A stretch of DNA of 64,000 nt from a virus. Taxonomy: Duplodnaviria; Caudoviricetes. The DNA lies in IMG/VR virus record IMGVR_UViG_3300025389_000010, positions 161,757 through 225,756 of that record. The stretch is one strand, 5' to 3'. The notes under the pieces are model-generated. The model made no database searches. It saw only the letters and a list, made by a program, of their open reading frames with translations, and was not told the DNA's origin. The position numbers and the translations under genes are program-made. Shown here one piece after another: positions 38,340 to 62,577 of the stretch; position 1 is the first letter of the stretch; every line of letters starts with the position of its first letter.

Positions 38340-38343
38340 ATTA

Positions 38344-38616
38344 TTATTCCTTGATGCCGTTGTCTTTCAATGTCTGTGCAAACTGCTCTTCTGATGCCTT
38401 CTTGCACTCGGAATAGTCCTTGAAAGGAGAACGAGCATAGGAACTTGTGTCCTCCCAATGGAACGATACTCTTGCCCAATTATCTGCCTCGAAAAAAGCC
38501 GCACGATGCACAACACACTCATGTTGCCATACAAGGCAGGTTATCGTATTGGTTAAGACAACTACCAGCAATGCCAGTAGCGTTATTACAATGTTGTTTT
38601 TGGTTTGGTCTGTCAT
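38344..38616 (-). CDS. Membrane-anchored hypothetical protein
   Basis: N-terminal TM helix. Confidence 0.55.
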   Translation of the reverse strand: MTDQTKNNIVITLLALLVVVLTNTITCLVWQHECVVHRAAFFEADNWARVSFHWEDTSSYARSPFKDYSECKKASEEQFAQTLKDNGIKE

Positions 38617-38635
38617 TGTTTTGCTTGGTTTTGGC

Positions 38636-39040: not shown

Positions 39041-39366
39041 TTTGGGTGTTGGTGTTGGTTGGAAAATTGTTCCCTGCTCCTCCGTCGAGGACTATCTTCG
39101 CTAAAAGATTCGGCGTTGCAATCGCACAGGGATTATTCGTAGACAGATTCCCCTGTCTACACGGGAGTTGCTCTCTGCCTTTTGCTCCGACTTGAGACGG
39201 ATTGGAAGCATCTTTTCTTCCAAGTAGCATTTCAACTATTGAGGATCTTATAGATTTTTGTGGTCAGGTCAATACTTTTTTTATGGTATGTCATCGTCAT
39301 CGTTTGCCCAATGAACCAGAAGGATTATCACTATCCAGAGAATGAGCAGGATGTCAAGGATGATCG

Positions 39367-39606
39367 TCATTTCACATGGAGGACATATTGCCCTCTAATG
39401 TAGATCGTATTGCCATGAATTGCACAATCATTCAGGTCATCCATGAAGACCGTGCAGTATTTTCCACTTACAATGATGTCATCGTCATCTTCGATCTCCT
39501 TGTTGATGAAGTCGATGTTGAGGTTGTATGAGTCAGAGGCATGGAATCCCTCGACCTTTTTTGCATTTTTCAGCAAGTCTAGTGCTATTAGTGCGTTTTT
39601 TGTCAT
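39367..39606 (-). CDS. Hypothetical protein
   Basis: Start refined to MTKNAL. Confidence 0.55.
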   Translation of the reverse strand: MTKNALIALDLLKNAKKVEGFHASDSYNLNIDFINKEIEDDDDIIVSGKYCTVFMDDLNDCAIHGNTIYIRGQYVLHVK

Positions 39607-39929
39607 AGTGTTACATTCTCCCACATTGAAATTAAAGGTTCGTCATTGTTAGAAATAAAATCGTTAATCATCTGAATTACCCGTCTCTTCTGCTTGTCCT
39701 TGGTTTCCACGCTAAAAGTCTGCGTGTTGCATCCCTTGAAATACAAGTGTTCCCTGCTATTGGTGTCTTTGTATTTCCTCTTGGAGATGATAACGGATCT
39801 GAACCTGTTATACATATTTGCATCTCCGTTGAAATCTTGGAGATCAAACACAATCTTCCACTCGGTGTAGATACACTCCCACTCGGTTCCGATTGCGGCT
39901 CGACTAATTTTTTTGTCAAGAATTTTCAC
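39603..39929 (-). CDS. Hypothetical protein
   Basis: 108-aa ORF. Confidence 0.55.
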   Translation of the reverse strand: MKILDKKISRAAIGTEWECIYTEWKIVFDLQDFNGDANMYNRFRSVIISKRKYKDTNSREHLYFKGCNTQTFSVETKDKQKRRVIQMINDFISNNDEPLISMWENVTL

Positions 39930-39962
39930 TATTTTGTTAGCTTAATTTGTAAGTATTGTTGT

Positions 39963-40442
39963 ATGAAAATTTGTGCTATATGTCAATCCCAAATTCCATC
40001 ATGGGTTGTAATTGATGGTAAAAGAAAAAACCTTCAACGGAGAAAGTATTGTTTAACTTGTTCACCTTTTGGCTTACATAATACTGCAAAGTTAAATGTT
40101 CCATTGGAGATTAGAGGTAGGGGCAGGATAAGAAAAAAGGGTGACACATATAAATATCAAAAGGAAAGAGGATTGAAAAGAAAAACCAAACTTGTAAAAT
40201 TATATGGTGGATGTTGTAAAATATGTGGTTACAAAAAGAATCTCGGTGTATTACAATTTCATCATAGAGATCCTAAAGAAAAGATAAGTCAATTAGATGT
40301 TCGTATAATAACAAATAGGACATGGCAATTTTGCCTTGATGAAGCAAAGAAGTGTGATTTGCTTTGTGCTAATTGTCATGCGGAGCATCATTATCCAGAA
40401 TTAAGTAAGTGGGCCGGGTCGGAGTCGAACCGACAGTCTTGA
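39963..40442 (+). mobile_element. HNH homing endonuclease with Zn fingers, antisense insertion next to a tRNA
   Basis: CAIC...CLTC; GGCCKICGY...LQFHH.DP..K...CDLLCANCH; AT-rich; TAAGTA before the ATG at 39963. Confidence 0.8.
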
Positions 40443-40483
40443 CCGTTATGAGCAGTATGTTTTAACCCTTAAACTACCAGCCC
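40410..40483 (-). tRNA. tRNA with CAT anticodon, probably Ile2 (lysidine type), otherwise Met; CCA not encoded
   Basis: Cloverleaf GGGCTGG/CCGGCCC-A, loop CT-CAT-AA, T-loop TTCGACT; C4-G69 and G68 resemble Ile2. Confidence 0.8.
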
Positions 40484-40516
40484 TTACTTAAATTTGTTAG
40501 TTGATGTTAGACTTTG

Positions 40517-40699
40517 TTAAGCCTTTTCGATACCCTCCAACAAGGTAAAGGTCTTGAGGTGTTTGACGGCATCACCCATTGCAGAGTCGAGAGTGATGAA
40601 CATTCCCTGCTCTTGCGTGTTGCCATCCTCATCGTCGTAACGATAAGCGTATCCTGCCTCTTTGTAATAAACCAGTTGGAGTGTTGGTATGTGTTTCAT
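40517..40699 (-). CDS. Hypothetical protein
   Basis: 60-aa ORF. Confidence 0.55.
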   Translation of the reverse strand: MKHIPTLQLVYYKEAGYAYRYDDEDGNTQEQGMFITLDSAMGDAVKHLKTFTLLEGIEKA

Positions 40700-40705
40700 T
40701 GTATG

Positions 40706-40918
40706 TTAGATAATGGTTGATTCCATGTCGATATTGGTATGGATCATAAGTTCCTCAATATCGTCAATGAATGAGTCCCTTGCCTCGACCCAATTTTCAA
40801 TGTCTTGCTCTGTTGCACCTTCCTTGTTCTTCTGAACAAAGGCGAGGAGCATATCGTTAAGAGAGTCTTTAAGACCGTTCTTGATTTCGTCTATCATTTG
40901 TGCGGATGCTGTTTTCAT
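40706..40918 (-). CDS. Hypothetical protein
   Basis: 70 aa; TTGACA-17-TAGAAT promoter at 40930-40958. Confidence 0.65.
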   Translation of the reverse strand: MKTASAQMIDEIKNGLKDSLNDMLLAFVQKNKEGATEQDIENWVEARDSFIDDIEELMIHTNIDMESTII

Positions 40919-40932
40919 GTTGGAATATAATT

Positions 40933-41205
40933 CTAGCCGATCTTTGCAGGAATGTCAATAGGCAATTCACAATAATTTTCGTGTTGCCAATTATGCAATG
41001 CCCTACCAAGTGCGATCCTGTTGCCAAGTTTGCGATTCGGATGATCCTTGTCGTGGCAGACTGCAATGCCCTTTGAGGTATTACCTACCCTGTCTGTCAA
41101 GAAGATTTCGGTGTGGTATTGCGAGTTGTGACAAACGAATACTTTCCAACCTTGTTTGCGGAGTTGTTCGATTGTCAGATGTTTGATGTCTGGTTTGTTG
41201 TGCAT
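40933..41205 (-). CDS. Conserved phage hypothetical protein
   Basis: G.AVCH.KD...RKLG..IALGRA pattern. Confidence 0.6.
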   Translation of the reverse strand: MHNKPDIKHLTIEQLRKQGWKVFVCHNSQYHTEIFLTDRVGNTSKGIAVCHDKDHPNRKLGNRIALGRALHNWQHENYCELPIDIPAKIG

Positions 41206-41209
41206 TGTA

Positions 41210-41428
41210 TTATCTCTCCTTGCTTAACAATTCGTTCTTGATGTCCTGCTGAAGTTCCTCCAAGTCCTTTAAGATTTCAGATGCCTCATCTAGTAATTCC
41301 TTGATCGACTCGTCCTCGACATCGAACTCGTCAAGGACGGCATCGAGATCGGAGAGGAGTGTTCCTTCTGCGACTCCACACCATTCGAGGAGTTGTCTGG
41401 TTGTTGTTTTTTCTGTTGGGGTTTGCAT
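41210..41428 (-). CDS. Acidic hypothetical protein
   Basis: 72-aa ORF. Confidence 0.55.
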   Translation of the reverse strand: MQTPTEKTTTRQLLEWCGVAEGTLLSDLDAVLDEFDVEDESIKELLDEASEILKDLEELQQDIKNELLSKER

Positions 41429-41633
41429 AATTTGTAAATCGGTCTATGTGGTATGAATGTTCTCATTGAAGGACAAGTTCATTCTCTGTCATATAAGCGA
41501 ATTGATCCTGTGGGTGTGCCTTGAAGGTTCCGATTGTTCCGACTTCTTCTGACACAAAGAACCAGATGCCTTCGATCAGAACAGCAGGACGACCCATCTT
41601 CATTTTGACTTGTGTATGTGCTTGTATCATATA

Positions 41634-42254
41634 TCAATCCTCCTCTTCCTCGTTATCTTCCATCATTTGATAGTAGTTGTCAAGATCCAAGTCGTAGTAA
41701 AGATCACTACCCTCTGGAATCTCATCCATGTCCTCATAGCAGTTGTCTTGCTCACCATCGGGGCCGACGATGTATTCACCTGCAAACATATATCCTTCAT
41801 CGAAATATGTCATGCGAAGTGTTTCGCCGGTCAACTTTGCAAGCTCTCGTATGACTGCAATCGGTGGACTCCATGCCGTCTGGAAACTTATGTCACCAAA
41901 GTCCTCGACATTGTTGATGCTATCGTCCTCCAATGTCCAACAACTGTATGCGTTCCACTTGGTGTCCCATTTGTCAACACTCCAATCATACCAGTTCTTG
42001 TAACCATAGTCCTTCAAGTTCTGCTCTTGTAAGAGGTCGTGTTCCTTCTGCCTTGCGTCTATCTCCTCCTTGGTTTTCGGTTCGGTGATCTTCTCTATCG
42101 TAGATTCTAGGGTAGTCTTGTAGATTCCCTCTGGCATAGGGATTATCTTGTTGAAGTCAATACTCTTGCCATCATCTGTAAGATAAGGCTTGATGACTTC
42201 TCCGATATTCTTTCCGCTAGTGCAGGAAAGACTGTTTGTGCAATGATTAGGCAT
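41634..42254 (-). CDS. DUF1281/YubB ferredoxin-like fold protein
   Basis: MPNHCTN...DFNKIIPMP...WYDW...WDTKWNA...F.TAWSPP...YFDEG. Confidence 0.8.
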   Translation of the reverse strand: MPNHCTNSLSCTSGKNIGEVIKPYLTDDGKSIDFNKIIPMPEGIYKTTLESTIEKITEPKTKEEIDARQKEHDLLQEQNLKDYGYKNWYDWSVDKWDTKWNAYSCWTLEDDSINNVEDFGDISFQTAWSPPIAVIRELAKLTGETLRMTYFDEGYMFAGEYIVGPDGEQDNCYEDMDEIPEGSDLYYDLDLDNYYQMMEDNEEEED

Positions 42255-42460
42255 TGTATTATGTTGTTTGTTTTGGTGTTGGGGTTAATCTCTTACCAGA
42301 AACAGATGTCCTTGGTCAAGCACATCATTGGTTTCTTCCTCGGAAAATTCCGTTCTGGTTATGGGGTAGTATTCCTCATCCTCGGCATCGTAGATCGTGA
42401 TGGTATCCTCCAACCGATCCTTGGGCATGGAGTAAAGAATGTTGAGTAATTCAGCGTATG

Positions 42461-42670
42461 TCATTTGTCAAATGGTGTGGAGTAAGACCAAGAAGGTTCT
42501 GCTTTTACCTTGAAGAACATTCCGATCAACGGAAGGTTCGGGTGAGTTTGGAGTTTGACCCTGTAATCGGCATAAGCCCACAGGAATGATGCAACGAATC
42601 CCATCGCTAGGATGATGTTGACTCTGGTTGTGTATCTTCTGGATCTGATTATTGTTCTTGCTGATTTCAT
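42461..42670 (-). CDS. Small membrane protein
   Basis: One TM helix. Confidence 0.5.
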   Translation of the reverse strand: MKSARTIIRSRRYTTRVNIILAMGFVASFLWAYADYRVKLQTHPNLPLIGMFFKVKAEPSWSYSTPFDK

Positions 42671-42892
42671 AGTGGGCCGAATTTATTGTAGTAACAAATG
42701 ATTACAAAGAGTAACAGGAAAGTGAGTAAGGTCATGTGGTTGTAATACGATATTGATTCTTCAATCCTGCCATTGTATCCCAAAGGGTGAAGGTGTCAAT
42801 CCTATTCTGTGCTTCTTTTTGGGAATCGGACTGAACATTGTTGATGCTCACCCACTTCTTCAACGATGTGTTAAAGTATTCGACAATGTATT

Positions 42893-43114
42893 TCATTCGA
42901 TTTCGTAAATGTGAGTGCTGGTCGTTGTCTGCTTGATGCGATAGAAGTTGGAGATGTGAACTCCTGCTTCGTTGTCTGGATCGTTGCGATAGAGGTGTCT
43001 TGCTCCTTCTTCTGCATCCTCTCTGTTCTCATAAGTCAGGGAATATCTGTCAGACCACTTCCTACGATTATAGACTTCGATAGTGAAGACGGTTTGTGTC
43101 TCGGTGTTAGTCAT
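42893..43114 (-). CDS. Hypothetical protein
   Basis: Start refined to MTNTET. Confidence 0.55.
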   Translation of the reverse strand: MTNTETQTVFTIEVYNRRKWSDRYSLTYENREDAEEGARHLYRNDPDNEAGVHISNFYRIKQTTTSTHIYEIE

Positions 43115-43370
43115 GGTAAATGTGTGCCGTGATCTCGTTGGCTTGCGTGTCGAATGTGATCCTAGTAGCAAACCCTCTCATAATGCAATGAGGTTGTTTC
43201 TTCTGTGCATGACTCTCAATATAGGGAACCTTGATCTTGACATGGTTGACCATGTGGCAAGCACCTTCCCAATGCACGGTCATGACATTACGACCCTGCT
43301 TCCTTGCCTCTGCCTTGTTGTAGTGGTAGAAGAATCTCTTGGGTTTGACTGCAATGATATTGTTTTTCAT
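43107..43370 (-). CDS. Conserved phage hypothetical protein
   Basis: FFYHYNK...MTVHW.G.CH...QP.C.MRG; start refined to MKNNII. Confidence 0.6.
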   Translation of the reverse strand: MKNNIIAVKPKRFFYHYNKAEARKQGRNVMTVHWEGACHMVNHVKIKVPYIESHAQKKQPHCIMRGFATRITFDTQANEITAHIYHD

Positions 43371-43374
43371 TGTA

Positions 43375-43578
43375 TTATTCCTCGTAGGGGATGTCACTTG
43401 CAATTTCATACACATTCCACAGGTCTTTGTTGAGAGTGTGAGAATACTCAAGCGGTTCGTCGGGTGTGCCAGTAGTGGCATACTTGTTCTCGGCAATTTC
43501 GATTGCCTCTTCGGGACTCTCTGCCTCGACATACATCGTGGCATAATGAACTTCAGGGATGCTTACGCTATATTTCAT
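43375..43578 (-). CDS. DpnD/PcfM-like small protein
   Basis: MKYSV.I.E......VEAES.EEA.E.AE. Confidence 0.6.
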   Translation of the reverse strand: MKYSVSIPEVHYATMYVEAESPEEAIEIAENKYATTGTPDEPLEYSHTLNKDLWNVYEIASDIPYEE

Positions 43579-43865
43579 TTTGCTTTGGTTGGTTTGGTTA
43601 TGGAGACTTTAGCTTTGCAGAGATCCTTGCTCTGGTCAATCGTTTTTTTCTCTTTTGCGATTCTTTTTTTTCTACGAGTGATAGCCTTGGAAACTTCCTT
43701 TATGATGTCGGGTTTGAGATAACTGTCATTGCTTGTATCAATATGTGTGTCAAGAGGATTGCCACTCATTGTAGTATAATCGGTTACATAGATTTTGGCC
43801 TTGTCATGCTTCATGATATAGACCTCCCTTATGATAATGTCCTTCGTGTATTGCAGGATTCTCAT
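43575..43865 (-). CDS. Hypothetical protein
   Basis: 96 aa; TTGCAT-16-TACGAT-6 nt-ATG. Confidence 0.6.
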   Translation of the reverse strand: MRILQYTKDIIIREVYIMKHDKAKIYVTDYTTMSGNPLDTHIDTSNDSYLKPDIIKEVSKAITRRKKRIAKEKKTIDQSKDLCKAKVSITKPTKAK

Positions 43866-43945
43866 ACCCTGATCGTATCATCATCGTGTATGGATGCAAC
43901 AACTTTTTTTGAAAACATTGTAATACGCCTCCGTTGCCGGGTGAC

Positions 43946-43987
43946 GATTTGTAAAACAAAGTTTTAATATTCTTTGTTTTACAAATA
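43946..43987. repeat. 42-bp palindromic element
   Basis: GATTTGTAAAACAAAG-TTTTAATATT-CTTTGTTTTACAAATA. Confidence 0.9.
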
Positions 43988-44024
43988 TCGCAGCGGGAAG
44001 GTTCGGTGGTCGGATCTGAAAACG

Positions 44025-44058
44025 AAAAACCCCACCACCCTTTCGGATGATGGGGTTT
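44025..44058 (-). terminator. GAAA-loop terminator after the tRNA cluster
   Basis: Identical to the hairpin at 32943-32976. Confidence 0.85.
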
Positions 44059-44104
44059 CCCATGAACAGGATCTTACTTCATGTAAGACCCTTACCAACA
44101 AAGT

Positions 44105-44180
44105 TGGTGGGATCGTCGGGACTCGAACCCGAAACCAATTCGTTAAAAGCGAACTGCTCTACCGATTGAGCTACGATCCC
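44105..44180 (-). tRNA. trnK: tRNA-Lys(UUU)
   Basis: 76-nt cloverleaf, loop CT-TTT-AA, encoded CCA. Confidence 0.95.
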
Positions 44181-44207
44181 TAAAGTCATTTTTGTTTCGT
44201 TGATTGT

Positions 44208-44282
44208 TGGTGCATCCAGTAGGAATCGAACCTACATATAGGCTTTAGAAGAGCCTTGTCCTATCCGTTGAACGATGGATGC
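44208..44282 (-). tRNA. trnR: tRNA-Arg(UCU)
   Basis: 75-nt cloverleaf, loop CT-TCT-AA, encoded CCA. Confidence 0.95.
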
Positions 44283-44293
44283 TTTATTAAGGT

Positions 44294-44388
44294 TGGAAGT
44301 GGCGGAGGGAATCGAACCCTCGCTAATCCCACATCTAGGGAAGTTATAGGTATAAACTATATCGTGCTTCCAATTACACTACGCCACC
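44294..44388 (-). tRNA. Atypical long-variable-arm tRNA with UAU anticodon (nominal Ile; identity uncertain)
   Basis: 95 nt; acceptor GGTGGCG/CGCCACT-T-CCA; stem TATAG/CTATA around TT-TAT-AC; about 23-nt variable region with a TCCC/GGGA stem; T-loop TTCGATT. Confidence 0.75.
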
Positions 44389-44397
44389 TTGTAAGTT

Positions 44398-45717
44398 TTA
44401 GTCCTCCTTGGTTTGAGTTGCCTTCTTGAAGAAGTTCCTCAAGGCATTAAGGACAGTCGTTGTATCCTGCTTCTTCTTGATGAAGCGACCCTTCTCGTCC
44501 CTGACATTGTGATATGCCGTGGGTGTCGGTGTAGGCTTGCTGGTGTTCTGGTTTTCGTGGCAACCACATTGACCTCCGCAACATCCATCGTTGCCCTTAT
44601 TGCCTACCTCATCTTCCTCGGTGTAGGTGTATCCACACTTCTTGTCGAGGTAGTCGGTCAAGGTTGGTTCCTCATTCGTGGTCTTGCCAGCACATCCTCC
44701 TCCGTAGCAACCAGAGTATTCATCGTCGTAGCAGTTATCACAAAGGTCGTCACCATTGCCGTTGTAGTTCTCGTTATTGAGTTCCAACTTGCAGGAACAG
44801 CAATTACCAAGTCCTTCATCGTCATCGTCATCCTTGCACAGATAGCAAAGATTATCTCCGTTGCCATCATAGGTTTTTTTGTTCAAGAATCCTCCACAAT
44901 TATCGCAGGTATCATCGTTGTCATTGTCCTCATACTCTCCACCATCGGAGGAGTAGAGATCAGAGTCGAACCCATTCTCTCCACGATCCAGTTTGCTCCT
45001 CCAATCGTCGGTGTATTCAGCAACAACCTCATAGCGACAGGTGCGACCCTTGGTGTTGTTGTAGTCGGCAGGGATCGCCACAACATCCTTGGGATTGATC
45101 TTAACAATCATCGTATGACCTCCGCTTGAATCCCTGAAGTGAGGGAGGTATGCAATCGAACAGAAGTGCAGACCATAGGAGCAAGTGCGATCCTTGTCCT
45201 CATCGACACGATTGCGAGGCATCTCACAGACCTTGCCAACGGAGTTGTCGAACTTCCCACTATGAATGTCCTTGTAATCTGCCTTGACATTCTTGTAGGC
45301 AAGGAAGCAACCATCCTCGGTGATCGGGAGTTCCCCAACCTCAAGGAAGTCGTAGAGTTCATCTACTGCTCTCTTGGAAGGATTCTGCATGAGGTTCTCC
45401 AAGAACTTCACAAGAGGCTCAAACGGAAGATCCTGCTGAACAAAGCTAATGATCCTCTTGGTGAGAGTATTATGGAGTTCTTCATCGTTATACACAAGGA
45501 TGCCGTCCTTAATGGAAATACCATGTGAGAGGTAGGCATTGAGTTGACGAGAGACATCGACATACTCCACGAACTTGTGCCAGAATCCGTTCTTCACGGC
45601 ATCCAGCAGGATGTGGTAGTTGGGATGGTCGGTGTCAATCGCATAGGACTGACCGTTGACAAATGCGGCGATCTTTCCAGATCCCGTAATTGTGACTGCG
45701 TTGTTGGTGGTGTTCAT
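44398..45717 (-). CDS. rIIB: RIIB-like protein with a Cys-rich acidic C-terminal extension
   Basis: PITEDGCFLAYK...MPRNRVD...CSYGLH...KINPKDVVAIP.DY...KGR.CRYEVV; follows rIIA. Confidence 0.85.
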   Translation of the reverse strand: MNTTNNAVTITGSGKIAAFVNGQSYAIDTDHPNYHILLDAVKNGFWHKFVEYVDVSRQLNAYLSHGISIKDGILVYNDEELHNTLTKRIISFVQQDLPFEPLVKFLENLMQNPSKRAVDELYDFLEVGELPITEDGCFLAYKNVKADYKDIHSGKFDNSVGKVCEMPRNRVDEDKDRTCSYGLHFCSIAYLPHFRDSSGGHTMIVKINPKDVVAIPADYNNTKGRTCRYEVVAEYTDDWRSKLDRGENGFDSDLYSSDGGEYEDNDNDDTCDNCGGFLNKKTYDGNGDNLCYLCKDDDDDEGLGNCCSCKLELNNENYNGNGDDLCDNCYDDEYSGCYGGGCAGKTTNEEPTLTDYLDKKCGYTYTEEDEVGNKGNDGCCGGQCGCHENQNTSKPTPTPTAYHNVRDEKGRFIKKKQDTTTVLNALRNFFKKATQTKED

Positions 45718-45727
45718 AGCGTTAATG

Positions 45728-45755
45728 ATCTTATCAGGGTTTTGCTCGGTGTCAA
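45728..45755 (-). promoter_or_regulatory. sigma70-type promoter of rIIB
   Basis: TTGACA-16-TAAGAT. Confidence 0.7.
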
Positions 45756-45770
45756 TACGATTTCTTTGTA

Positions 45771-47795
45771 TTACTTGAGATTTTCTACAAGCAGGAGAAC
45801 TTCGTCAATCGACCAGTTATAGGTTCCAATCCTTGACAAGAGCAAGGAGATTGCCTTGTTAGACCCTGCATACTTGATCGGTGTGTTGGAACGAAACGAG
45901 TGACCCTCAAAGAGCAAATGGTCAATACTCCGATACTTGTAATACTTATCCATGCACTCGTTGACCTTGTTGACAAAGACCTTGAACTCGTTGTCCTTGG
46001 CAAGTGACATGAACTTGCTGTGCTTTACAATGTTCTGAATTGTCGATTGGTTGTAGTGATAGCAAGTTGCAAGACCTTCTTTGTCAATGTCGATCTTGAT
46101 GTTGTCGTTGATCCATTTGATAAAATCAACACAAGTGGCAGGAAGGTTCTTGACATTGTTCTCGGAAACCATGACCACATCCTTTTCGGTAAGTTCCATG
46201 AACTGCATGACCCGATACAGGTCACTCTTGTTGGCAATAAACTTTTGCAGACCCTTGATCGGGAAGTTGATGTCGTAGTTTTCCTTGGGTTTGACAAGGT
46301 AAAACTTTGGAGTCTGTGCATCGAATACCTCGGCATCCCAACCCTTCTTGTCGAGATCACCAAGATAATAAAGGTTGAACTGACCCTTGACCCTTTGCGT
46401 GGTCGTGGTCGTGCGACCCTTGCGTGATGCAGGGATGGGTTTGGGCAGACTGCTCACAGGCAGGAATGATTCCTTGGGGAACCCATTGGCAATCATCTTG
46501 TCGTATGCCTTACTTGAGAATACACAAATCTTGGTGTCCTCGTTAGACCTGACATGATGCCTGACACGAGAGATGCCACCCTTGATGTCATCATGGTAAT
46601 ACCATGTGATATTACGACCCATCTGGACATTGTGACTCTCGTTGATCTTGGTTCTGTAATACGAAGGCTTGCTGTATGTAATGCAAGGTATGGGATCGTC
46701 GGAAATGTGGTTGACCACATTAGCCTTGATGATCTCCCTGATGAAACCGTATGGATCGGAAATGTCCATGCCCTTCCACATGAGTTTGTCGATCTTCATA
46801 CCTTGTATGAAAGCGAACTGGTTGTGCAGGGTATAGACCATGTGCAAGGCATCGTAGATGTTTGTCTTCTCGGCAAGCATCTCGGTCAACCTCTTCTTGA
46901 AGTCCTCTTGAACCATTGCCAACTTGTCGTTGAGTGCCTTGATGGTTGCAGGACAATATGAGATAGACTCACGACTTGGAGTGAAATCAATCTCACCCAT
47001 CTTGAAGTGCAGGACAAGGTTTGCTTTGTAAAGCATATCCCGATACTTGCCGTCGAGCTTATAGGAGTTAATGGGATAGTTGACTCCTCCCATGATGGCA
47101 AAGCTACCATTCCAATCCTTCTTGCTATCGGCATAGCTTTCCCATCCATCGCCCTTGAACATGGGTGATTCAATGTTCCACTCGATCTTACCTCCCGTGA
47201 TGGTAGGCTTAACAGAGAAGAAACGAAATGCCTTGAAGGTTGCCGTCTTGAAGTCCTCAAAGTCACTTGCCTTGACAGGGATCTTGATGGCAACTCCGTT
47301 CTCCTCGGTCGTGTTCTCGGTAGATACCAGAGCAATGGCAGGAGTGTTGTGTTGGTTGAAGAAGGCATTGTATGTCCTCTTCACACCCTCATGGATACTC
47401 GTCACGGTGAAGGCATCGGTGTAGCAGAAAGGAGACTTGCTACCAAGACCAAGGCATCCAACTTGGTCATCGGTGTTGGTCTTTGTGCTTTCAAAGTATG
47501 TCGCATAGATATTGTAGATGTTCTCATGCGAGATGCCGGTTCCGTAGTCTTGAATGGTGATCCAAGGCTCAAGTGTATTGGGCAGATGAATGTGGAAGGG
47601 ACGATCCTTCTTACCAGATGCAACCATGCTATCGCTTGCATTGCATCCCAACTCACGCACGATGGCGAGAGGCTTATCGGAGTAGAGGTCAGAAAGAATC
47701 TGAAAAGCCTTGCGGCTTGACTTCATCTTGAACTCGTTCTCCTGTGTCACTTGTCCGATCTGCTCGACTGTGTTGGTGTTCTCTATCAGTTTCAT
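45771..47795 (-). CDS. rIIA: RIIA-like protein (GHKL ATPase N-terminus)
   Basis: LYSDK..AIVREL..NA.DS, IQDYGTGIS, STK...DQVGCLGLGSKSPF. Confidence 0.85.
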   Translation of the reverse strand: MKLIENTNTVEQIGQVTQENEFKMKSSRKAFQILSDLYSDKPLAIVRELGCNASDSMVASGKKDRPFHIHLPNTLEPWITIQDYGTGISHENIYNIYATYFESTKTNTDDQVGCLGLGSKSPFCYTDAFTVTSIHEGVKRTYNAFFNQHNTPAIALVSTENTTEENGVAIKIPVKASDFEDFKTATFKAFRFFSVKPTITGGKIEWNIESPMFKGDGWESYADSKKDWNGSFAIMGGVNYPINSYKLDGKYRDMLYKANLVLHFKMGEIDFTPSRESISYCPATIKALNDKLAMVQEDFKKRLTEMLAEKTNIYDALHMVYTLHNQFAFIQGMKIDKLMWKGMDISDPYGFIREIIKANVVNHISDDPIPCITYSKPSYYRTKINESHNVQMGRNITWYYHDDIKGGISRVRHHVRSNEDTKICVFSSKAYDKMIANGFPKESFLPVSSLPKPIPASRKGRTTTTTQRVKGQFNLYYLGDLDKKGWDAEVFDAQTPKFYLVKPKENYDINFPIKGLQKFIANKSDLYRVMQFMELTEKDVVMVSENNVKNLPATCVDFIKWINDNIKIDIDKEGLATCYHYNQSTIQNIVKHSKFMSLAKDNEFKVFVNKVNECMDKYYKYRSIDHLLFEGHSFRSNTPIKYAGSNKAISLLLSRIGTYNWSIDEVLLLVENLK

Positions 47796-47837
47796 GGGTG
47801 TTGGTGTTTATGGGTTGGTGTCGTATTGACAAGGGAC

Positions 47838-47865
47838 AATCTATACGATGGATCACCCGTGTCAA
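47838..47865 (-). promoter_or_regulatory. sigma70-type promoter of rIIA
   Basis: TTGACA-16-TAGATT with upstream A-tracts. Confidence 0.7.
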
Positions 47866-47927
47866 AACTTTTTTCGGTGTCCGAAACTTTTTTTATTTTT
47901 CCGTTGACAAGATACTTTGTATGATAG

Positions 47928-48003
47928 TGGTAGATGTGGTGAGACTCGAACTCACACTTGACGGATTTTAAGTCCGTTGCCTCTGCCGTTGGGCTACACA
48001 TCC
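47928..48003 (-). tRNA. trnL: tRNA-Leu(UAA) with a short variable loop
   Basis: 76 nt; loop CT-TAA-AA; 5-nt variable loop; A73; encoded CCA. Confidence 0.9.
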
Positions 48004-49594: not shown

Positions 49595-49792
49595 TCATTC
49601 ATCCTTAACTTTTTCCTTTTCGGCTACTTCTTTTAACTCGTCATGAAGTGATCTTATTTTGTCCTTCAAGTCGATAATCTGTACCTTGAAGCTATTCGTG
49701 ATTAAAACAATTTTACTAGTTTTTCTAATAAGCTTGTTTAACTTAGTTTCAAGAACTCTTATTTCATTAACTATTTCAATTTTCGATCTCAC
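49595..49792 (-). CDS. Coiled-coil hypothetical protein
   Basis: 65-aa heptad pattern. Confidence 0.55.
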   Translation of the reverse strand: MRSKIEIVNEIRVLETKLNKLIRKTSKIVLITNSFKVQIIDLKDKIRSLHDELKEVAEKEKVKDE

Positions 49793-49885
49793 TATTTAAT
49801 ACTTATCAATTCTAAAGTTATATTAAATAATGTGATAACTAGTGTGGTAATGCCACACCATGTTGTATTTTTACAAAGTGTTGTA

Positions 49886-52800
49886 TTAAATCGGCATCAA
49901 TTTTTCTCTTTGTAATGAAGGGGTGATTTTCTGTGTAAAATCACCGATACTAATAGATATTGGAATATCATCACTATGATCATTACCATAAAATTGATCT
50001 AAAAACGATTCTAAAGTTTTAGGGTTTTTATTTAAACTATATCTGGATGTAACCAAATAAAATAAATCATATGCTAAGATGTATCCACTATACCCATTGA
50101 CATCTCTTTCGGAAGAAGGTATTTTTATTTTTCCATTTATTATATTGTTAATCACACTTTTACGTTCTTCTTTATTATTTACTTTTATTTCTTTTACAGT
50201 TTTATTATCATTTATACTATAAACACACAAATAAAGAGGATATGAACTAGAATTTTTAACATCATTAAAAGATTTTTTGTAATTTAAAGTTTCAATATTA
50301 AAAACTTTAACCCACTTTAAAAATTCATTACAAGCATTTATATATTGCTGAATTGTTTCAAAACCAAAAATTTTAATTTCTTTATTTATTTTATGTATTT
50401 CAGAACCATAAAAAGTTACATTTTCAATATAATTTACACTACTCTCTATTACTCTAGTTAGTGCTACTATATCTATATTAGAATAATTTTCAATTGGGTA
50501 ATTGTATCCATCAGCTTTAAGTTTTCCTAAAAATTTAGCAACCCAAGGATAATTCTTTTTAACTTCTTTTATAAACAATTTATTAGTTATTGTATTTGTT
50601 GTAGGTTGTTTATAAAAAAAATCAGGTCTAATTTCATCATCATATATGTACATTCTATTCTTTTTAGAATCATATGCACCGAAAAGATTATGTCTGCTTT
50701 GTAAAATCTTATTATTGAAAGTTACAACACTTTCCGATAATACCGATTCTGTTAAATTTTTATTATCAATGTTTTTATATTGTTCCGGTGTTAATTGAGC
50801 AATATCATTTATTGTTTCTTTAAAATTTTCGGGAAATGGAGAGTTATCAATTGATACATATAACATACCATATTTTGTTTTTATATTTTTAAATCTACCA
50901 TATGTTGGTTTAGCGTTATAACTATAAAAATAAATTTTATTTAAATATTCACATTCATCATTATTTTGTTTTTCAAACATTTTTAATGTTTTATTTAAAA
51001 ATGTTAACATATGTTCAATATTTTTTATTTTTTCAACATACCAAATTGTTCCATATTGATTACCGTAAGCTTCACGGCATGATGATGTTACTGATGCATA
51101 TAAAGGATAATTTGAATCATTAAATATAGTATGTGAATAATGTCTATCAAAAATATTTCTAAAATCTTTTAAAAGTTTTAAAACTTTTTCTGACAATCCC
51201 GGTTGATTATATTCTTCATCAAGCCATTTATTATCAGCCCTAATTTGCAATACTGCTGAATCCATCTCTTCTATATATGGAAATTGTTTTTTAATATATT
51301 CTTTAAAATATTTTTTAAAATATTTTATACCCATATTGTTTTTGGCTGGTTTGTTTGGGTTTGTTAAAATTAGATCAAGAAAATTACCAGTATAATAACT
51401 AATATTTTTAATAAGTTCTTGTAATTTTTCTTGATTAGAATCTTCCGATACTAATTCTTCTTTACTTTCCGATATTGCATAATATGCTAATTCACCAGAT
51501 TTAATATGTTTTTCAACATCATAAAATTCATTTGTTTGCCAATAAAAATCCTTTGCGTCTAATGAACTTCTACTGGTAACGACAAAGGAATAATAATATC
51601 CGGGGTTTCCTATTTGTTCATCGTAATCAATATCTGCAAAAACATCGCTTTTTGGAATTTCTACTCTTGTTTTACCGGTTTCGATATTTTTAATTTTGGT
51701 CTTTAATTCTTCTGGATTATTTACTTTTACTTTTAATACAACTTTGTAGTCATTTAAACTTACAACATTTAAATACAATGGATAATTTTCTTTGTTATTT
51801 ATATCTTCATTAAATGAATCATTTATTATAGTTTTTTCAAGGCTTATTAACCAATTTTGAAAAGATATAAATTGTGACAAAGCATTTTCTTTTGTTTTAA
51901 ATCCAAAAACATTAAGATATTTCTTCAAATTAGCTTCATCGGCAGGATCTGTATATTTCGTATTATTTTCATGAAAATTTTTAACATAATATATGCTACT
52001 ATCAACATCTCTTTTTGTAGCATCTATTAAATTTAAAATCTGAGAATGTTCTATTGTAACATAATCAAAAATATCTTTCCAACTTCTATCGTAATCATAA
52101 TTTTTAGCATGTGACACTAAAGATTGTCTATTTTTCATAAACAATGCATTTGAAATAAGTTTTTTAGCCCAAGGGTATTTTTCATCAACTTCATGTTTAA
52201 TGATATTGCTATATTTTATAAAATTTATTTTTGTTTTGTATCCGTAGCTGATAGGAAATATTGAATTATGATTGAAGAAAAACTGATTTGTCTTATTATT
52301 ATAAACTGCCGTGACTTTACTTCCTCTTTCACCTTTTTCGCTCCAAACAAAAGGTATAATTGCTTCCGATAATATATTTTTAATATCTTCTGTGTCAATA
52401 GAACCTTTATCTATTATATCACTTAAAGCTTTTTTTAGAAGATTTATTTCTTTTACATATTCTGCATAACTTTCTTTACTCGCTGATTTAATCGATGCTT
52501 TTGCATTTTTTATAAATCTTTTATCTTGATTAACATAATCTAAGTTACCTTTTACCATTACATCAAAATTTATATATATGCTTTCTATTTCTTTTAAAAA
52601 TTCACTGTTATCACTAAATGTTTTCTGTAATTGTTCAATATTTTGTTTATTTTTAAGATTTTTAACTGCATTGATATATTGATCGTAATTTTCTATCAGT
52701 TTATGATAATATATAGTTTGATGTGCTCCATAATTTACAATAGCCCTAAGAACCACGGGATATGACCATGAACTTTCTAAATTTGTTTTATCGGTTTCCT

Positions 52801-55387
52801 TAAAAGATTTCCAAATAATATCATATAATTTTTTAAAAATAGGATATTCACCATAATGTTGCAATCCATCGAAAACAGATAAAATTTGATGTATTTGGTT
52901 TAAAGTATTTTCTTGGTTGTAATTTTTATCACTTACAATATTACCATTTACATCTTTCAATACATTTTTAAATCTATTAAATAAATTTTTTATTGATTGA
53001 ACAATCGCACCTGCATTTGGATCATTTGGAAATCTATCCTTTTCAAAAAATTTAGCTTCTATTTTTGAACACAAACTCAAGAACTTTTTATAATCTTTAA
53101 TAGTATAATTTGCATTGATCTTATCAGCAATCTCAACACGTATTGGTTTTAAATATCTTCCTTCTAAGTTATCTGCAAATTTTTGAGACTCGTTTATACT
53201 TTGATTATTGCCATATAATTCATCTTCAATGAATTTTTTAAAAACATCTGAAAAATGTGAGTTAAATGAAGATTTCTTAGAAGAAGTTATTTTTAAAACT
53301 GTTATCCTTTCTATGGACCATTTTGCTTTTATTTTTTCCAAAAAACTTAAATCGTGTAATATATCGTAAAGTTTTTTGTAATATTGTTTGTTTTTTATTA
53401 AAATAAAAGAATCATATGCGTTTCCTCTTATATCAAATAATGCAAACCGAGCATAAAATGGATAAATGGCATCATTTCTAGCTGTTAAGAAAAACTTATT
53501 TTTTAAAAAAATAAATATTTTATTGAGATAATCTTTTGCTTTAATATAATATTTTTCTTTGTTTACATCAAAAGAATTTAATCCGGGGTTTAAATAAAAA
53601 TTAATATAATGAAACATATATTGAAGTTGAAAAATATTTTCTAATTTTTCATTTTCTTGTTCTTTAAGATGTTTTGTAAAATTTTTATAAAAAAGTGGAT
53701 ATTTTTTATTAACCAAATTTTTTGTAATTGTATTTATTTTGTTTAAATAAATCTTATTATCTTTTAACGTATGTCCAATTGAATGAAGATTAGAATTTTC
53801 TATATTTTTATCTAAGACGTAATCCATATAATCATCATCAAAATCTACTTTTATAACCGGATTACTTACGCTCTCATTTATTGGTTTTTTAATATCTAAT
53901 ATAAATTCAAGTATATCTTCACATGATCTAAAAAATTTTAAATGATTAATATCATCTTTAGGTATAAAATCTATAAAAGATTTTACCCATTTATATTGTT
54001 TATTTATTTCAGAATAAGGTTTTGCTGCTCTATTTGAAGTATCTGATAATTTGTGTATAAAACTTATTTTTGCATCTATTTTATATTCATCATCATTAAG
54101 TCGAGTGTAAAAATACACTTCATCGATATATTCTTTTAATTTGTTTTTATTGTTTACTTTAACATGAAATTCAAAATTTCTGCTATAATCTTGTAAAGAC
54201 ACAAGCATATATAATGGATAATTGTTATTGTTATCTAATGATAAAGGGTTTTGTTCTTTTTCAACTTCAGATAAATAATTTTTAAAAGCATGAATTTCTT
54301 TGTATTTTTTATCATCAATTGATTCTATATCAAGAGTAAAAGGATACCCATCAATATAAAAATTTATTGTTTTTTCTCCTAAAAACCTTGCTTTATTTAT
54401 ATAATCTATAAAATAATTTAAAGTGTTTATCGCATTATAATTATTTTTTTTATATAGACTTTTTAAAATACCATATACTGGCATTTTATTTTTATTAAAA
54501 TATTTTACAATAAGCCAAAAGAGAAGTTTTTGTATATGTGGAGTATAACCCTGTTTAGTATATATTTCAGGGTAAACATAAAAACCACTATAATAATCAA
54601 ATTTTTTTTGTGAAAGATATGATGTAAGGTCATCTTTTTTTTCTAACGAATCATCGTCATCATCACGAGATTCTTTTACTATACTATTTGAATTTAAATT
54701 TTCGTTAAATTTTATATCTCTAACTCTTTCTCTTAGAAAAAGATTTTTATAATGTGTGTCTTTTTTATGTTCAAAAACTATTTCTATTTTATCGATATCT
54801 TTTGTAGGATAACCTTTTTTGTATATTTTTATATTATCGGCAATATTTTTTACTTTTGAAAAAAGTTCATTTCTATTCATTACTTTTAATGAACCCAAAT
54901 ATACAATCGTCCTGTCTTTTTTTATGATATAAAGAGAAGCATATACTGGATAAACACCTTTATCCTGTAAACTATTAAAAGTACGAAATTTTAAATTACC
55001 TTGTATATTATCATAAAATGTTTTTATTTTTATTTTTAGATTATGATTAAAAGAAATTGAAGAAGGAACTGATGTAAATGGAGATGAAATATTACCTAAA
55101 AAATATTCAACCGAAACATTTGGATTATTTTTTAAATAAATTTGAAAATTTTTTAATATTTCCTTATATTCTCTATCACTAAAATATTCTTTTATTTTTT
55201 GAATTAAAAATTTATCAAATGCTAAATATTTTCTTTTGCTATGAATATCATTCATATCATTTTCTACAAAAGATTGAATTTCAATTGATGACTTTTTTTT
55301 ATAAAATTCTCTTAATTTAAGAAAATCTATATAAAATTTATTTTCACTTATGGTATGTAATGCATCTTCAAGCTCATCATCGGTCAT
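49886..55387 (-). CDS. 1833-aa modular protein with seven YP(L/V/F)(Y/V) repeat modules; putative virion polyprotein
   Basis: Seven YP motifs, each followed by a (K/L)(V/I)xN motif; modules 5 and 7 align over more than 200 aa; linkers contain VKES, INES, INES, LSE, ISE and LTES/LSES. Confidence 0.75.
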   Translation of the reverse strand: MTDDELEDALHTISENKFYIDFLKLREFYKKKSSIEIQSFVENDMNDIHSKRKYLAFDKFLIQKIKEYFSDREYKEILKNFQIYLKNNPNVSVEYFLGNISSPFTSVPSSISFNHNLKIKIKTFYDNIQGNLKFRTFNSLQDKGVYPVYASLYIIKKDRTIVYLGSLKVMNRNELFSKVKNIADNIKIYKKGYPTKDIDKIEIVFEHKKDTHYKNLFLRERVRDIKFNENLNSNSIVKESRDDDDDSLEKKDDLTSYLSQKKFDYYSGFYVYPEIYTKQGYTPHIQKLLFWLIVKYFNKNKMPVYGILKSLYKKNNYNAINTLNYFIDYINKARFLGEKTINFYIDGYPFTLDIESIDDKKYKEIHAFKNYLSEVEKEQNPLSLDNNNNYPLYMLVSLQDYSRNFEFHVKVNNKNKLKEYIDEVYFYTRLNDDEYKIDAKISFIHKLSDTSNRAAKPYSEINKQYKWVKSFIDFIPKDDINHLKFFRSCEDILEFILDIKKPINESVSNPVIKVDFDDDYMDYVLDKNIENSNLHSIGHTLKDNKIYLNKINTITKNLVNKKYPLFYKNFTKHLKEQENEKLENIFQLQYMFHYINFYLNPGLNSFDVNKEKYYIKAKDYLNKIFIFLKNKFFLTARNDAIYPFYARFALFDIRGNAYDSFILIKNKQYYKKLYDILHDLSFLEKIKAKWSIERITVLKITSSKKSSFNSHFSDVFKKFIEDELYGNNQSINESQKFADNLEGRYLKPIRVEIADKINANYTIKDYKKFLSLCSKIEAKFFEKDRFPNDPNAGAIVQSIKNLFNRFKNVLKDVNGNIVSDKNYNQENTLNQIHQILSVFDGLQHYGEYPIFKKLYDIIWKSFKETDKTNLESSWSYPVVLRAIVNYGAHQTIYYHKLIENYDQYINAVKNLKNKQNIEQLQKTFSDNSEFLKEIESIYINFDVMVKGNLDYVNQDKRFIKNAKASIKSASKESYAEYVKEINLLKKALSDIIDKGSIDTEDIKNILSEAIIPFVWSEKGERGSKVTAVYNNKTNQFFFNHNSIFPISYGYKTKINFIKYSNIIKHEVDEKYPWAKKLISNALFMKNRQSLVSHAKNYDYDRSWKDIFDYVTIEHSQILNLIDATKRDVDSSIYYVKNFHENNTKYTDPADEANLKKYLNVFGFKTKENALSQFISFQNWLISLEKTIINDSFNEDINNKENYPLYLNVVSLNDYKVVLKVKVNNPEELKTKIKNIETGKTRVEIPKSDVFADIDYDEQIGNPGYYYSFVVTSRSSLDAKDFYWQTNEFYDVEKHIKSGELAYYAISESKEELVSEDSNQEKLQELIKNISYYTGNFLDLILTNPNKPAKNNMGIKYFKKYFKEYIKKQFPYIEEMDSAVLQIRADNKWLDEEYNQPGLSEKVLKLLKDFRNIFDRHYSHTIFNDSNYPLYASVTSSCREAYGNQYGTIWYVEKIKNIEHMLTFLNKTLKMFEKQNNDECEYLNKIYFYSYNAKPTYGRFKNIKTKYGMLYVSIDNSPFPENFKETINDIAQLTPEQYKNIDNKNLTESVLSESVVTFNNKILQSRHNLFGAYDSKKNRMYIYDDEIRPDFFYKQPTTNTITNKLFIKEVKKNYPWVAKFLGKLKADGYNYPIENYSNIDIVALTRVIESSVNYIENVTFYGSEIHKINKEIKIFGFETIQQYINACNEFLKWVKVFNIETLNYKKSFNDVKNSSSYPLYLCVYSINDNKTVKEIKVNNKEERKSVINNIINGKIKIPSSERDVNGYSGYILAYDLFYLVTSRYSLNKNPKTLESFLDQFYGNDHSDDIPISISIGDFTQKITPSLQREKLMPI

Positions 55388-55391: not shown

Positions 55392-55748
55392 TTACATGAG
55401 TTTTAATTCTTTAAGTCTTTCTTTTAAAATAGGTTGTGTTGTTTCTACAAAAGTTTTGGAATGAATAGTATCTTCTATTTTTGCATTGGTTTCAACTTTT
55501 TTGAAAAAGTTTATAAAATCTTTTTTATTAGATACATAGAAACTATTTTTTATAAGGTTTATAACAGCATCAACACCAGCATAAGGGTTTTTTTTAAGTT
55601 TTCTACCAATTAACCTATTTGCTCTCTTATAAAACATATTCATTGAAAGTTTAGGTGCGCCTTCCAATGGTTCTGCTTCTATGTATTCGTCAAATTCAAC
55701 AACCATATCATATGCTTCTGCTAATAATTCTAAATCTTTATCTTTCAT
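55392..55748 (-). CDS. Hypothetical protein, probably virion-associated
   Basis: Leader MKDKDLELLAEAY; ATAAATA upstream. Confidence 0.65.
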   Translation of the reverse strand: MKDKDLELLAEAYDMVVEFDEYIEAEPLEGAPKLSMNMFYKRANRLIGRKLKKNPYAGVDAVINLIKNSFYVSNKKDFINFFKKVETNAKIEDTIHSKTFVETTQPILKERLKELKLM

Positions 55749-55756
55749 ATTAATAT

Positions 55757-56650
55757 TTATCTAAGTGTGTAATGCTTTGGATCAGTATAAAGTCTTCTAT
55801 ATGCTACTTCAGGGTTTTCACCAAGAGTAATTTTACCATTTCTCTTTTCATTTAAGAAATTAAGATATTCACCGATTCTTAATGATATTCTAAGTTGTTC
55901 TGGTGTAAGATCTGCTTTGATTCTTACGTTTGATAAAGCAAGAGGTTTTGGCTTTTGCTTATCTTGAAATCTATCTGTTGTAAATAATGCACCTTTTGGT
56001 ATAAAACCATTTTGATCAACTTTTAAAGCTGTTCTATATGGTTTTTTATCTACACCCCACCAATAAACAACATCTTTTTCTCTTTCTCTATCTATTGGTG
56101 TATCTTGTCTTCTCCTAAATGATTTCCAAGGTTTGCCCAAATGTGTATAAATTTTTTCATAAAGTCTAGCTAACTCTTTGTTACCACCAGATTGACCAAA
56201 TTGAAAAATATCAAGATATACTATTTTTTCATGACTATTATCAGATGGTAAATAAAAAGGTTTACCGTTTTTATCAACTTTTCCTTTTTTTGCAGGATCT
56301 CTAAACCGGTGTGTCGGTGTAACCCCACCATGTCTTGTATCTTCAAGAATTCTTTTTAATATCTGATTTGCTGATAATGTAACTTCTTTACCTTGAGTTT
56401 TTACAGTATATTTCTTCTTGAAATTTGAAATTTCAAGAATTTTAAATATTATATTAGCAGCAGTACTATCATTTGGATTTTTCTTAATCTTATCTAAGTT
56501 ATTACCTAAAATTTTTGTTACACCTTTTGGGTCTCTTTCAATATCCAAAGCACCTTGACCACCCTTTGCAAAATAAGCTCCAGTTTCAAAAAGTGTGTAT
56601 GCTTCATCTTTTCCTTCTACTAAGTATTTATATAAGATATCAAATTTCAT
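55757..56650 (-). CDS. Hypothetical protein, probably virion-associated
   Basis: Leader MKFDILYKYLVEG; TAAATA upstream. Confidence 0.65.
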   Translation of the reverse strand: MKFDILYKYLVEGKDEAYTLFETGAYFAKGGQGALDIERDPKGVTKILGNNLDKIKKNPNDSTAANIIFKILEISNFKKKYTVKTQGKEVTLSANQILKRILEDTRHGGVTPTHRFRDPAKKGKVDKNGKPFYLPSDNSHEKIVYLDIFQFGQSGGNKELARLYEKIYTHLGKPWKSFRRRQDTPIDREREKDVVYWWGVDKKPYRTALKVDQNGFIPKGALFTTDRFQDKQKPKPLALSNVRIKADLTPEQLRISLRIGEYLNFLNEKRNGKITLGENPEVAYRRLYTDPKHYTLR

Positions 56651-56681
56651 TTTCTTATATATTTACTTTAGTTTTTTAAAA

Positions 56682-61768: not shown

Positions 61769-62338
61769 TTAGTGCTTAATAATATACCAAACTACTCCCA
61801 AGTCAAATATAAACAATCCAAGAACCATAATATGTAGAGCAATGAGAAGAGTTCTGATTTTTGGAATAATAATATATTCAATATGATTGATCTCAGCAAA
61901 TCTATTGTGATTCTGCTTATTAAGTTCCTCAATCTTCTTTCCTTGTTCAAAGGTAAGATTGATTGTACTATGCAAAGTCTCTCTTGTCTCAGTAATGTTA
62001 TTAGTATTCTGCTCAATATCATATTCAGCATGTTTCTTAAATGCTCTAAAATCATCCTTTAACTTACCTATACTTTCATCTGTAGCATTTTGCGAATGTA
62101 CAATACTAGTTGCCAAAGTCTGAAGTGACTCTTCTAGTCCTTCTACATTTCTTTGAGGAATAGAAGCGGCGGTAATAGTACCCATCCAACCATTACCAAT
62201 AGTCTTCATTTCTTTTTCACAAAATTCACAATAGTTTGGAATTAAGTTTACTGGATATTCAAGAACATCATCACACTCGACCAATGCAATAAAATCTCTG
62301 TGACATTCGGCACATTCTGTACTGATTTCTTTTTTCAT
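61769..62338 (-). CDS. Zn-ribbon, coiled-coil, C-terminal TM protein
   Basis: CAEC...CEFC; heptads; hydrophobic tail. Confidence 0.6.
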   Translation of the reverse strand: MKKEISTECAECHRDFIALVECDDVLEYPVNLIPNYCEFCEKEMKTIGNGWMGTITAASIPQRNVEGLEESLQTLATSIVHSQNATDESIGKLKDDFRAFKKHAEYDIEQNTNNITETRETLHSTINLTFEQGKKIEELNKQNHNRFAEINHIEYIIIPKIRTLLIALHIMVLGLFIFDLGVVWYIIKH

Positions 62339-62577
62339 TTAAATAAGTTTTAAGATTGGATGGTCAATGAAATCATTAATATCATTCTCATATTTTTCAC
62401 TAATAGTAAGAATAGCATTTACCATCTCTTGCCATTGTTTACAGTCGGCAGACGCATCAAGAATACCAAGAATCTTTTGTGCTACTTCTTCAGCTTTAAT
62501 TGTGTTTTGATCTTTCATATTATTGATTTTTTATTATTAGTTAAAGTGTCGCTTTAACTAAAGCAGATAATTCAATA

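Follow-up and report, generated by a model that had tools for sequence, protein, structure and literature searches.

What would a phage gain from a 215-kDa protein that repeats one unit seven times? The question is raised by P0001, a single open reading frame on the minus strand (49886..55387, stop codon included) that encodes 1833 aa (~215 kDa) in an uncultured, T4-like phage. The window, i.e. the whole stretch of DNA analysed here, is the final 64 kb of a 225,756-bp IMG/VR virus record whose completeness is rated by CheckV as complete. At 22.9% GC versus 32% genome-wide, P0001 ranks sixth from the bottom among the genes of this phage, which makes its composition low, not exceptional. Because 5.5 kb remain open in such AT-rich DNA, the reading frame can be considered real and not a product of chance. 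An earlier note on this DNA had proposed that the gene yields seven internal head proteins, each released from a common precursor by the prohead protease, and the analysis below follows up this proposal.

Modular layout of P0001

On the evidence of its sequence, P0001 is composed of seven tandem, diverged copies of one module, which range from 228 to 299 aa in size (27-35 kDa, pI 6.5-9.7) and all lie on the minus strand. Module 1 (54671..55387; aa 1-239) has its YP core at residue 146 and ends in IVKE↓S, with the arrow marking the predicted cut here and below. It is followed by module 2 (53873..54670; aa 240-505; core at 390), which ends in PINE↓S, module 3 (53189..53872; aa 506-733; core at 642), ending in SINE↓S, and module 4 (52364..53188; aa 734-1008; core at 876), ending in ILSE↓A. 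Module 5 (51467..52363; aa 1009-1307; core at 1202) terminates in AISE↓S and module 6 (50747..51466; aa 1308-1547; core at 1427) in LTE↓S, while module 7 (49889..50746; aa 1548-1833; core at 1716) completes the protein. These cores correspond to the seven YP strings listed in the earlier note, every one of which was found. The pattern YP[LVF][YV].{8,26}[KL][VI].N matches P0001 at seven regularly spaced positions, compared to 0.003 matches expected from shuffles, and has no match in the remaining 69,707 residues of the phage proteome.

How firmly these units can be called paralogues, as the same note had done for all seven, varies along the chain. M5 and M7 are clear homologues from end to end (blast E 1e-16; local-alignment z 21.6), and M2 matches each of the two (z 5-6). 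With a leave-one-out HMM of the ~95-residue YP core, M1, M2, M5, M6 and M7 were recovered at E-values of 3e-10 to 5e-4, compared to 0.04 or worse for the highest-scoring phage ORFs outside the modules; M3 and M4, i.e. two of the seven modules, were not recovered. Whole-module leave-one-out HMMs failed to recover M1-M4, and hhalign was unsuccessful for M2, M3, M4 and M6, so the support for M1-M4 and M6 comes from the core HMMs and the pattern search. Taken together, the profile and pairwise tests support the homology of modules 1, 2, 5, 6 and 7. Module 3 is linked to the others weakly (blast E 0.004 to M6; z 3.5-3.9), and module 4 is placed in the family by its YP motif. We accept all seven modules, with 3 and 4 as the least certain ones and with an identity of 37% or less from module to module.

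Beyond this phage, no homologue of P0001 emerged from a protein search with residues 1-1833, from HMMER with residues 634-1833 against 1.84 billion representatives, from a profile of the seven modules run against proteins of 125-524 aa, from tblastn against 50,697 phage records, from scans of IMG/VR and the JGI metagenomes or from a search of the ESM Atlas by features. Pfam and PHROG returned no family for P0001, for any of its modules or for the neighbouring genes, and no peptidase domain in P0001.

Structure prediction gave a similarly sparse picture. The AF2 model of module 7, for which the seven modules served as the alignment, has a mean pLDDT of 54 and comprises a beta hairpin, a helical bundle (residues 48-164) and a beta-beta-alpha-beta unit that contains the YP motif. 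Its last ~60 residues and its first 19 are disordered or of low confidence; the latter, which directly follow the junction, have a pLDDT of 26-34 and no secondary structure. A single-sequence AF2 model of P0001 residues 200-1399 was unusable (pLDDT 34). Fold searches with module 7 returned generic helical-bundle matches only (best E 0.46 for Foldseek against the PDB, best Z 6.5 for VIA wide), and the Atlas fold search with the same model gave TM values of 0.30 or less. Weak hints of a GIY-YIG nuclease came from T4 EndoII (Foldseek E 1.8) and from an Atlas GIY-YIG cluster (TM 0.24-0.30). This idea was dropped. PF01541 gave no match even at E 10, and six of the seven modules are without the Gly and Arg positions of GIY-YIG.

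A variable locus upstream of rIIA

The genomic position of P0001 can be compared between phages via rIIA (45771..47795, minus strand), which was identified together with rIIB beside it (44398-45717). rIIA has many homologues and was used to find relatives and to establish synteny, leading to a comparison of eight syntenic loci of related phages. The closest relative, L006, has an rIIA that is 94% identical, on a 5.3-kb contig that stops just short of the gene position. Upstream of rIIA lies a hypervariable stretch bounded on one side by a P0003-family gene, which is missing in one relative, and on the other by a conserved gene of 65-81 aa. The latter is represented here by a 65-aa coiled-coil gene (49595..49792, minus strand) that has its own TAAGTA motif and forms the conserved downstream border of the locus. 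Between these borders, the eight relatives encode zero to three separate genes: no extra gene in L012, two genes each in L007 and L009 (233 + 212 aa), L013 (207 + 198 aa), L014 (132 + 49 aa) and L015 (155 + 196 aa), and three in L011 (150 + 199 + 184 aa). In a comparison that covered L007, L009, L011 and L013, the variable genes were unrelated between lineages.

Most of the variable genes whose N-termini were read begin with one of two types of leader, both ending in (I/L)xE↓(N/S/A). Type A, M..KDQ.LL.E↓AY, is common to seven otherwise unrelated proteins of the phage under study (HMM E 1e-8 to 1e-11; next ORF 0.1), none of which belongs to any known family, and it is also found in L015 (MNKDSLLLE↓MAY and MTLEE↓AY). 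Type B occurs in the relatives as MNFKQYILE↓N, MNFKQYYLKE↓N, MLSFKQFITE↓S and MKTFKEYIKSVTLEE↓N, as well as MKTFKEYIKS.., and is close to MKTYQEFIAE, the capsid-targeting sequence of T4 (PMC8442874). The leader-bearing separate genes of the relatives encode 130-235 aa and are thus comparable in size to a single module of P0001. In T4, the capsid-targeting sequence is a short N-terminal peptide common to cargo proteins that otherwise differ (PMC9026906, PMC3012670). By analogy, a shared leader ending in L-x-E↓A on unrelated, presumptively late proteins is the signature of such a sequence.

In the phage itself, the gene directly upstream of P0001 is one of the seven type-A genes. P0002 (55392..55748, minus strand; 118 aa) starts with MKDKDLELLAE↓AY, and its stop codon lies 4 nt before the P0001 start. 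The motif TAAATA at 55754..55759 (minus strand), 11 nt before the P0002 ATG, is the likely promoter of a P0002-P0001 operon. Further upstream, the conserved anchor gene P0003 (55757..56650, minus strand; 297 aa) is preceded by TAAATA at 56660-56665 and contains eight [IL]xE sites where 2.7 are expected. Its family has a conserved leader of its own (MKFD..V.KI.L.E), which in P0003 reads MKFDILYKYLVE↓G. Throughout this phage, TAA[GA]TA peaks sharply 11-13 nt ahead of start codons. It is present upstream of the scaffold gene, the protease gene and further genes for head and tail, as well as upstream of P0003, of P0002 and of each of the seven genes with a type-A leader, and we read it as the late promoter core. 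With a gap of 4 nt to P0002 and neither a promoter nor a terminator between the two genes, P0001 appears to be the last gene of a late operon. Its late expression is predicted from this position and from the promoter motif, and expression may be low since there is no Shine-Dalgarno sequence ahead of P0001.

P0001 itself lacks a recognisable targeting leader. The type-A and type-B HMMs have no match in it, whereas they do match its upstream neighbour P0002; residues 16-27, NKFYIDFLKLRE↓F, bear only a loose resemblance to type B. A candidate 15-aa propeptide, MTDDELEDALHTISE↓N, is delimited by I-S-E at residue 15, with L-R-E following at residue 27; both sites fall within the 7-65 residues taken here as the length of a T4-type propeptide. 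However, an [IL]xE site falls within the first 20 residues of 75 of the 295 phage genes, meaning that 25% carry one by chance and that the I-S-E of P0001 is weak evidence.

Because the relatives hold variable and mostly leader-bearing genes at this position, the P0001 locus looks like a hyperplastic head-cargo locus that is occupied by separate leader-bearing genes in other phages. P0001 itself most likely arose by tandem duplication within this locus or by fusion of genes in it. For this clade of uncultured T4-like phages, the hypervariable late locus upstream of rIIA, with leaders on most of the variable genes that were read, may be a more robust and more reusable result than the polyprotein reading discussed below. 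Together with the two short leaders, which are predicted to be cleavable, it suggests a rule, based on sequence, by which packaged proteins of metagenomic phages could be predicted.

Junction sites and the prohead protease

The phage encodes a prohead protease of the gp21 type (Peptidase_S77, PF03420; genome positions 61833-62501), detected with 92 bits and above the cut-off. T4 gp21 cleaves after the Glu of L/I-X-E (PMC9026906). This specificity seems to be conserved here, since the scaffold, the capsid protein and the protease all carry matching sites. The scaffold (gp22) homologue contains 17 [IL]xE sites as opposed to 6.5 expected (z 5.7), HINE↓S and KLNE↓S among them. CLEE↓ANVSGGG is found near residue 60 of the capsid protein, about the place of the cut in T4 gp23. 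In the protease, LLVE is located at residue 10, just as T4 gp21 carries LIE at residue 9 (PMC9026906).

In P0001, the junction strings quoted in the earlier note are all present, namely IVKES at residue 236, PINES at 502, SINES at 730, ILSEA at 1005, AISES/LVSED at 1304/1312 and LTES/VLSES at 1545/1549. The accompanying claim of a gp21-type site at all six junctions needs one amendment: five of them have the canonical Ile or Leu at P3, but junction 1 has Val (V-K-E). If Val is admitted, (I/L/V)xE↓(S/A) is present at all six. The strict motif [IL].E[SA] has six matches in P0001 (503, 731, 1006, 1305, 1545 and 1550), all of which are at junctions, with 2.1 expected. For [ILV][NST]E[SA], there are six matches versus 0.6 expected, and among the 23 phage proteins of 600 aa or more, P0001 alone has more than one. 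As the total number of [IL].E sites is not enriched (23 versus 20 expected), the special feature of P0001 is the placement of these sites rather than their count. They follow the YP core at a distance of 89-130 residues and fall at a relative position of 0.37-0.46 in each inter-core interval. The junction motif was kept while the modules diverged to the extent described above, and its variants match the site variants of the scaffold homologue. Two junctions are doubled: at the end of module 5, AISE↓S is followed by LVSE↓D eight residues on, and at the end of module 6, LTE↓S is followed by VLSE↓S five residues on. Redundant sites have been reported for phiKZ-type propeptides as well (PMC9026906).

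We give an even chance to the reading that P0001 is a polyprotein of internal head proteins processed by the prohead protease, inferring the processing from the sites described. P0001 would be made late as a precursor of seven diverged paralogous modules and loaded into the prohead, where the gp21-type protease would cut it after the Glu of (I/L/V)-x-E↓(S/A), behind the N-terminal propeptide of 15 residues as well as at all six junctions or at some of them. This would leave as many as seven individual internal head proteins, which would enter the host together with the DNA. The protease, the site-rich scaffold, the late-type operon and the cargo-like locus speak for the proposal that one gene yields seven such proteins, and the absence of a leader on P0001 speaks against it. 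The complete strategy, in which a single 215-kDa precursor is cut in the prohead into seven paralogues of 27-35 kDa for equimolar delivery, possibly to different host targets, is put forward more tentatively, at somewhat less than an even chance. That the modules are aimed at different host defences is speculation by analogy with T4 IPI. While the repeats, the placement of the motif and the gene context are observed, packaging, cleavage, delivery and any role in the host are inferred from them.

The most serious alternative treats P0001 as a large late protein, possibly of the virion, whose seven domains stay in one chain or which loses only its N-terminal propeptide. In (I/L)-x-E-S, each repeat would then begin with a conserved element of its structure, e.g. 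a strand or helix cap, that only resembles a protease site. In line with this, the motif lies within the repeat unit and is aligned between M5 and M7 (ILSEAIIPF and VLSESVVTF). A hydrophobicity scan marked clearly polar sequence only at junctions 1, 3 and 5b and found junctions 2, 4 and 6 ordinary, so it lends no independent support to the exposure of all junction sites. Moreover, many [IL]xE sites of folded proteins stay uncut in T4, and P0001 has no leader to direct it into the head. Yet the junction motif is the only sequence besides the YP core that is kept in all repeats, its tandem doubling at two junctions would be odd for a structural element, it matches the scaffold site variants of the same phage, and no other large protein of the phage has such an excess of it. 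Because of the missing leader, the low-confidence models and the fact that only three junction sites are clearly polar, we retain the uncut chain as an unlikely explanation that still deserves weight.

A late cytoplasmic protein that is never packaged, such as a host-directed or assembly factor whose resemblance to protease substrates is meaningless, appears improbable. It would be compatible with a P0001 that has no leader, no known domain and no structural match, but it sits uneasily with the operon shared with leader-bearing P0002, with the leaders on most of the variable genes read at the same locus in relatives and with the non-random placement of the junction motif.

The junctions also show a peculiarity of codon use. 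The P2 Ser is encoded by the rare codon TCG at all four junction x-S-E sites, creating the in-frame octamer TATCGGAA four times, whereas TCG makes up 9 of the 134 Ser codons in P0001 and is not favoured at [ILV]SE sites in the rest of the proteome (6 of 58). This hints at a constraint at the nucleotide level for which cleavage offers no explanation. The octamer may stem from gene conversion, from a joint formed by recombination or from a codon that causes a pause where two domains meet. Inside P0001, the junctions are not regularly accompanied by late-promoter motifs or start codons. It is nevertheless very improbable that the motif is only a nucleotide signal, be it a recombination joint through which modules are shuffled or a pause at rare codons, with no role for the protease, since junctions 1-3 and site 6a differ in sequence (AAAGAA, AATGAG, AACGAG and ACAGAA) yet keep the amino-acid motif, and such a signal could coexist with cleavage.

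Relation to known head cargo and polyproteins

The host encounters the head-packaged proteins of a phage before any of its other proteins, and those of T4 include inhibitors of restriction systems. If P0001 is indeed a processed polyprotein, it would represent a known principle, i.e. capsid-targeted cargo processed by a gp21-type protease, in a new form, that of a polyprotein of paralogues. T4-type phages would thereby be able to enlarge their injected arsenal through module duplication within a gene, using the prohead protease as the releasing enzyme, and would provide a compact natural design for the co-packaging of several proteins.

The closest parallel is found in IPI, IPII and IPIII, which are internal proteins of T4, and in Alt, with which P0001 has in common a T4-like phage, a protease of the gp21 family and a hypervariable, late-type locus. 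T4 internal protein loci contain diverse cargo that shares only the targeting sequence (PMC3012670), and the putative cargo genes of the relatives and of the phage described here similarly have leaders of 9-15 residues ending in (I/L)xE, one type of which resembles MKTYQEFIAE. T4 cargo proteins, however, are single small products that are cut once, whereas P0001 forms a single product of 215 kDa that has as many as eight predicted internal sites, seven paralogous modules and no shared leader.

In phiKZ, 201phi2-1 and SPN3US, a gp21-related protease processes inner-body and ejection proteins of the head, cleaving behind the Glu of a short motif; the propeptides have redundant sites, and paralogous head proteins differ in number from phage to phage (PMC5694885, PMC9026906). 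Unlike the modules of P0001, each of these paralogues has a gene of its own, and what is cut off is a propeptide; a precursor that gives rise to a whole chain of paralogues is described in neither publication (PMC5694885, PMC9026906).

The polyvalent proteins of phages and conjugative elements are a further point of comparison. These very large, multidomain proteins have their genes beside those of the virion and are predicted to enter the capsid and to be injected from it, and for some of them processing into separate products has been proposed (Iyer et al. 2017; PMC5512222). These combine different known enzymatic and DNA-binding domains and often have their own metallopeptidase, in contrast to P0001 with its seven copies of one module, no match in Pfam or PHROG and no peptidase domain. 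Finally, the T4 core proteins gp22, gp67 and gp68 resemble P0001 in having multiple L/I-x-E sites, which in T4 are cut by gp21. There, the sites are dense and the proteins are cut to small peptides that leave the head, while those of P0001 occur only every 230-300 residues, between units of the size of a folded domain.

Type-A leaders and late-promoter-like motifs

Seven ORFan proteins, unrelated in the rest of their sequences, have in common an N-terminal leader of 10-13 residues, M(K/R)(D/N)KDQxLLxE|AY (type A; the bar marks the predicted cut), and a late-promoter-like motif is present at each of their genes. These are located at window positions 20285-20962 (-), 27398-27700 (+), 27708-28574 (-) and 55392-55748 (-), the last encoding the 118-aa protein P0002, and at genome positions 139668-140006 (-), 152523-152855 (-) and 154235-154615 (-). 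The seven proteins constitute a candidate capsid-targeting-sequence family, which would predict which cargo the phage packages.

Genome-wide, the position of TAA[GA]TA peaks 11-13 nt 5′ of the ATG in some 60-70 genes, head genes included (e.g. window 55754-55759, 56660-56665 and 49796-49801, all on the minus strand), and a Shine-Dalgarno sequence is absent from most genes with the motif. Should TAA[GA]TA serve as the -10 element of late promoters, the late transcripts would carry little or no 5′ leader. A TAAGTA late-type motif is also found upstream of a 3337-aa ORF (window 655-10668 (-)), whose giant product is presumably a fibre or other virion protein.

P0001 junctions and the P0003 family

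Despite the highly diverged modules of the 1833-aa P0001, four of its junction sites contain the in-frame octamer TATCGGAA with the rare Ser codon TCG (window 52364-52371, 51467-51474, 51443-51450 and 50732-50739, all (-)).

P0003 (window 55757-56650 (-)) is one member of a protein family, 297-466 aa in length and with its own leader, MKFD..V.KI.L.E; most relatives retain a member of this family where the variable locus starts. Searches of P0003 found no match to any family or fold; [IL]xE sites are in excess (8 versus 2.7 expected), and the protein may serve in the head as core or cargo.

Type-B leaders in the variable locus

Upstream of rIIA, the variable-locus genes of related phages are mutually unrelated, and most of them begin with another leader, type B, of consensus M(N/K)FK(Q/E)Y(I/F/Y)LxE|(N/S) (L007:4404-5740, L009:2692-4030, L011:4358-5995, L013:3662-4892 and L014:5053-5202; genome 138324-138710 (-) is listed with this observation). 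In L015 it is the type-A leader that is found at this locus (L015:6188-7242). In our phage, rIIA and rIIB, together with many small minus-strand genes, lie within ~20 kb of 42-46% GC (window 28000-48000), compared with 32% for the genome. The type-B leader of the relatives resembles the T4 sequence MKTYQEFIAE.
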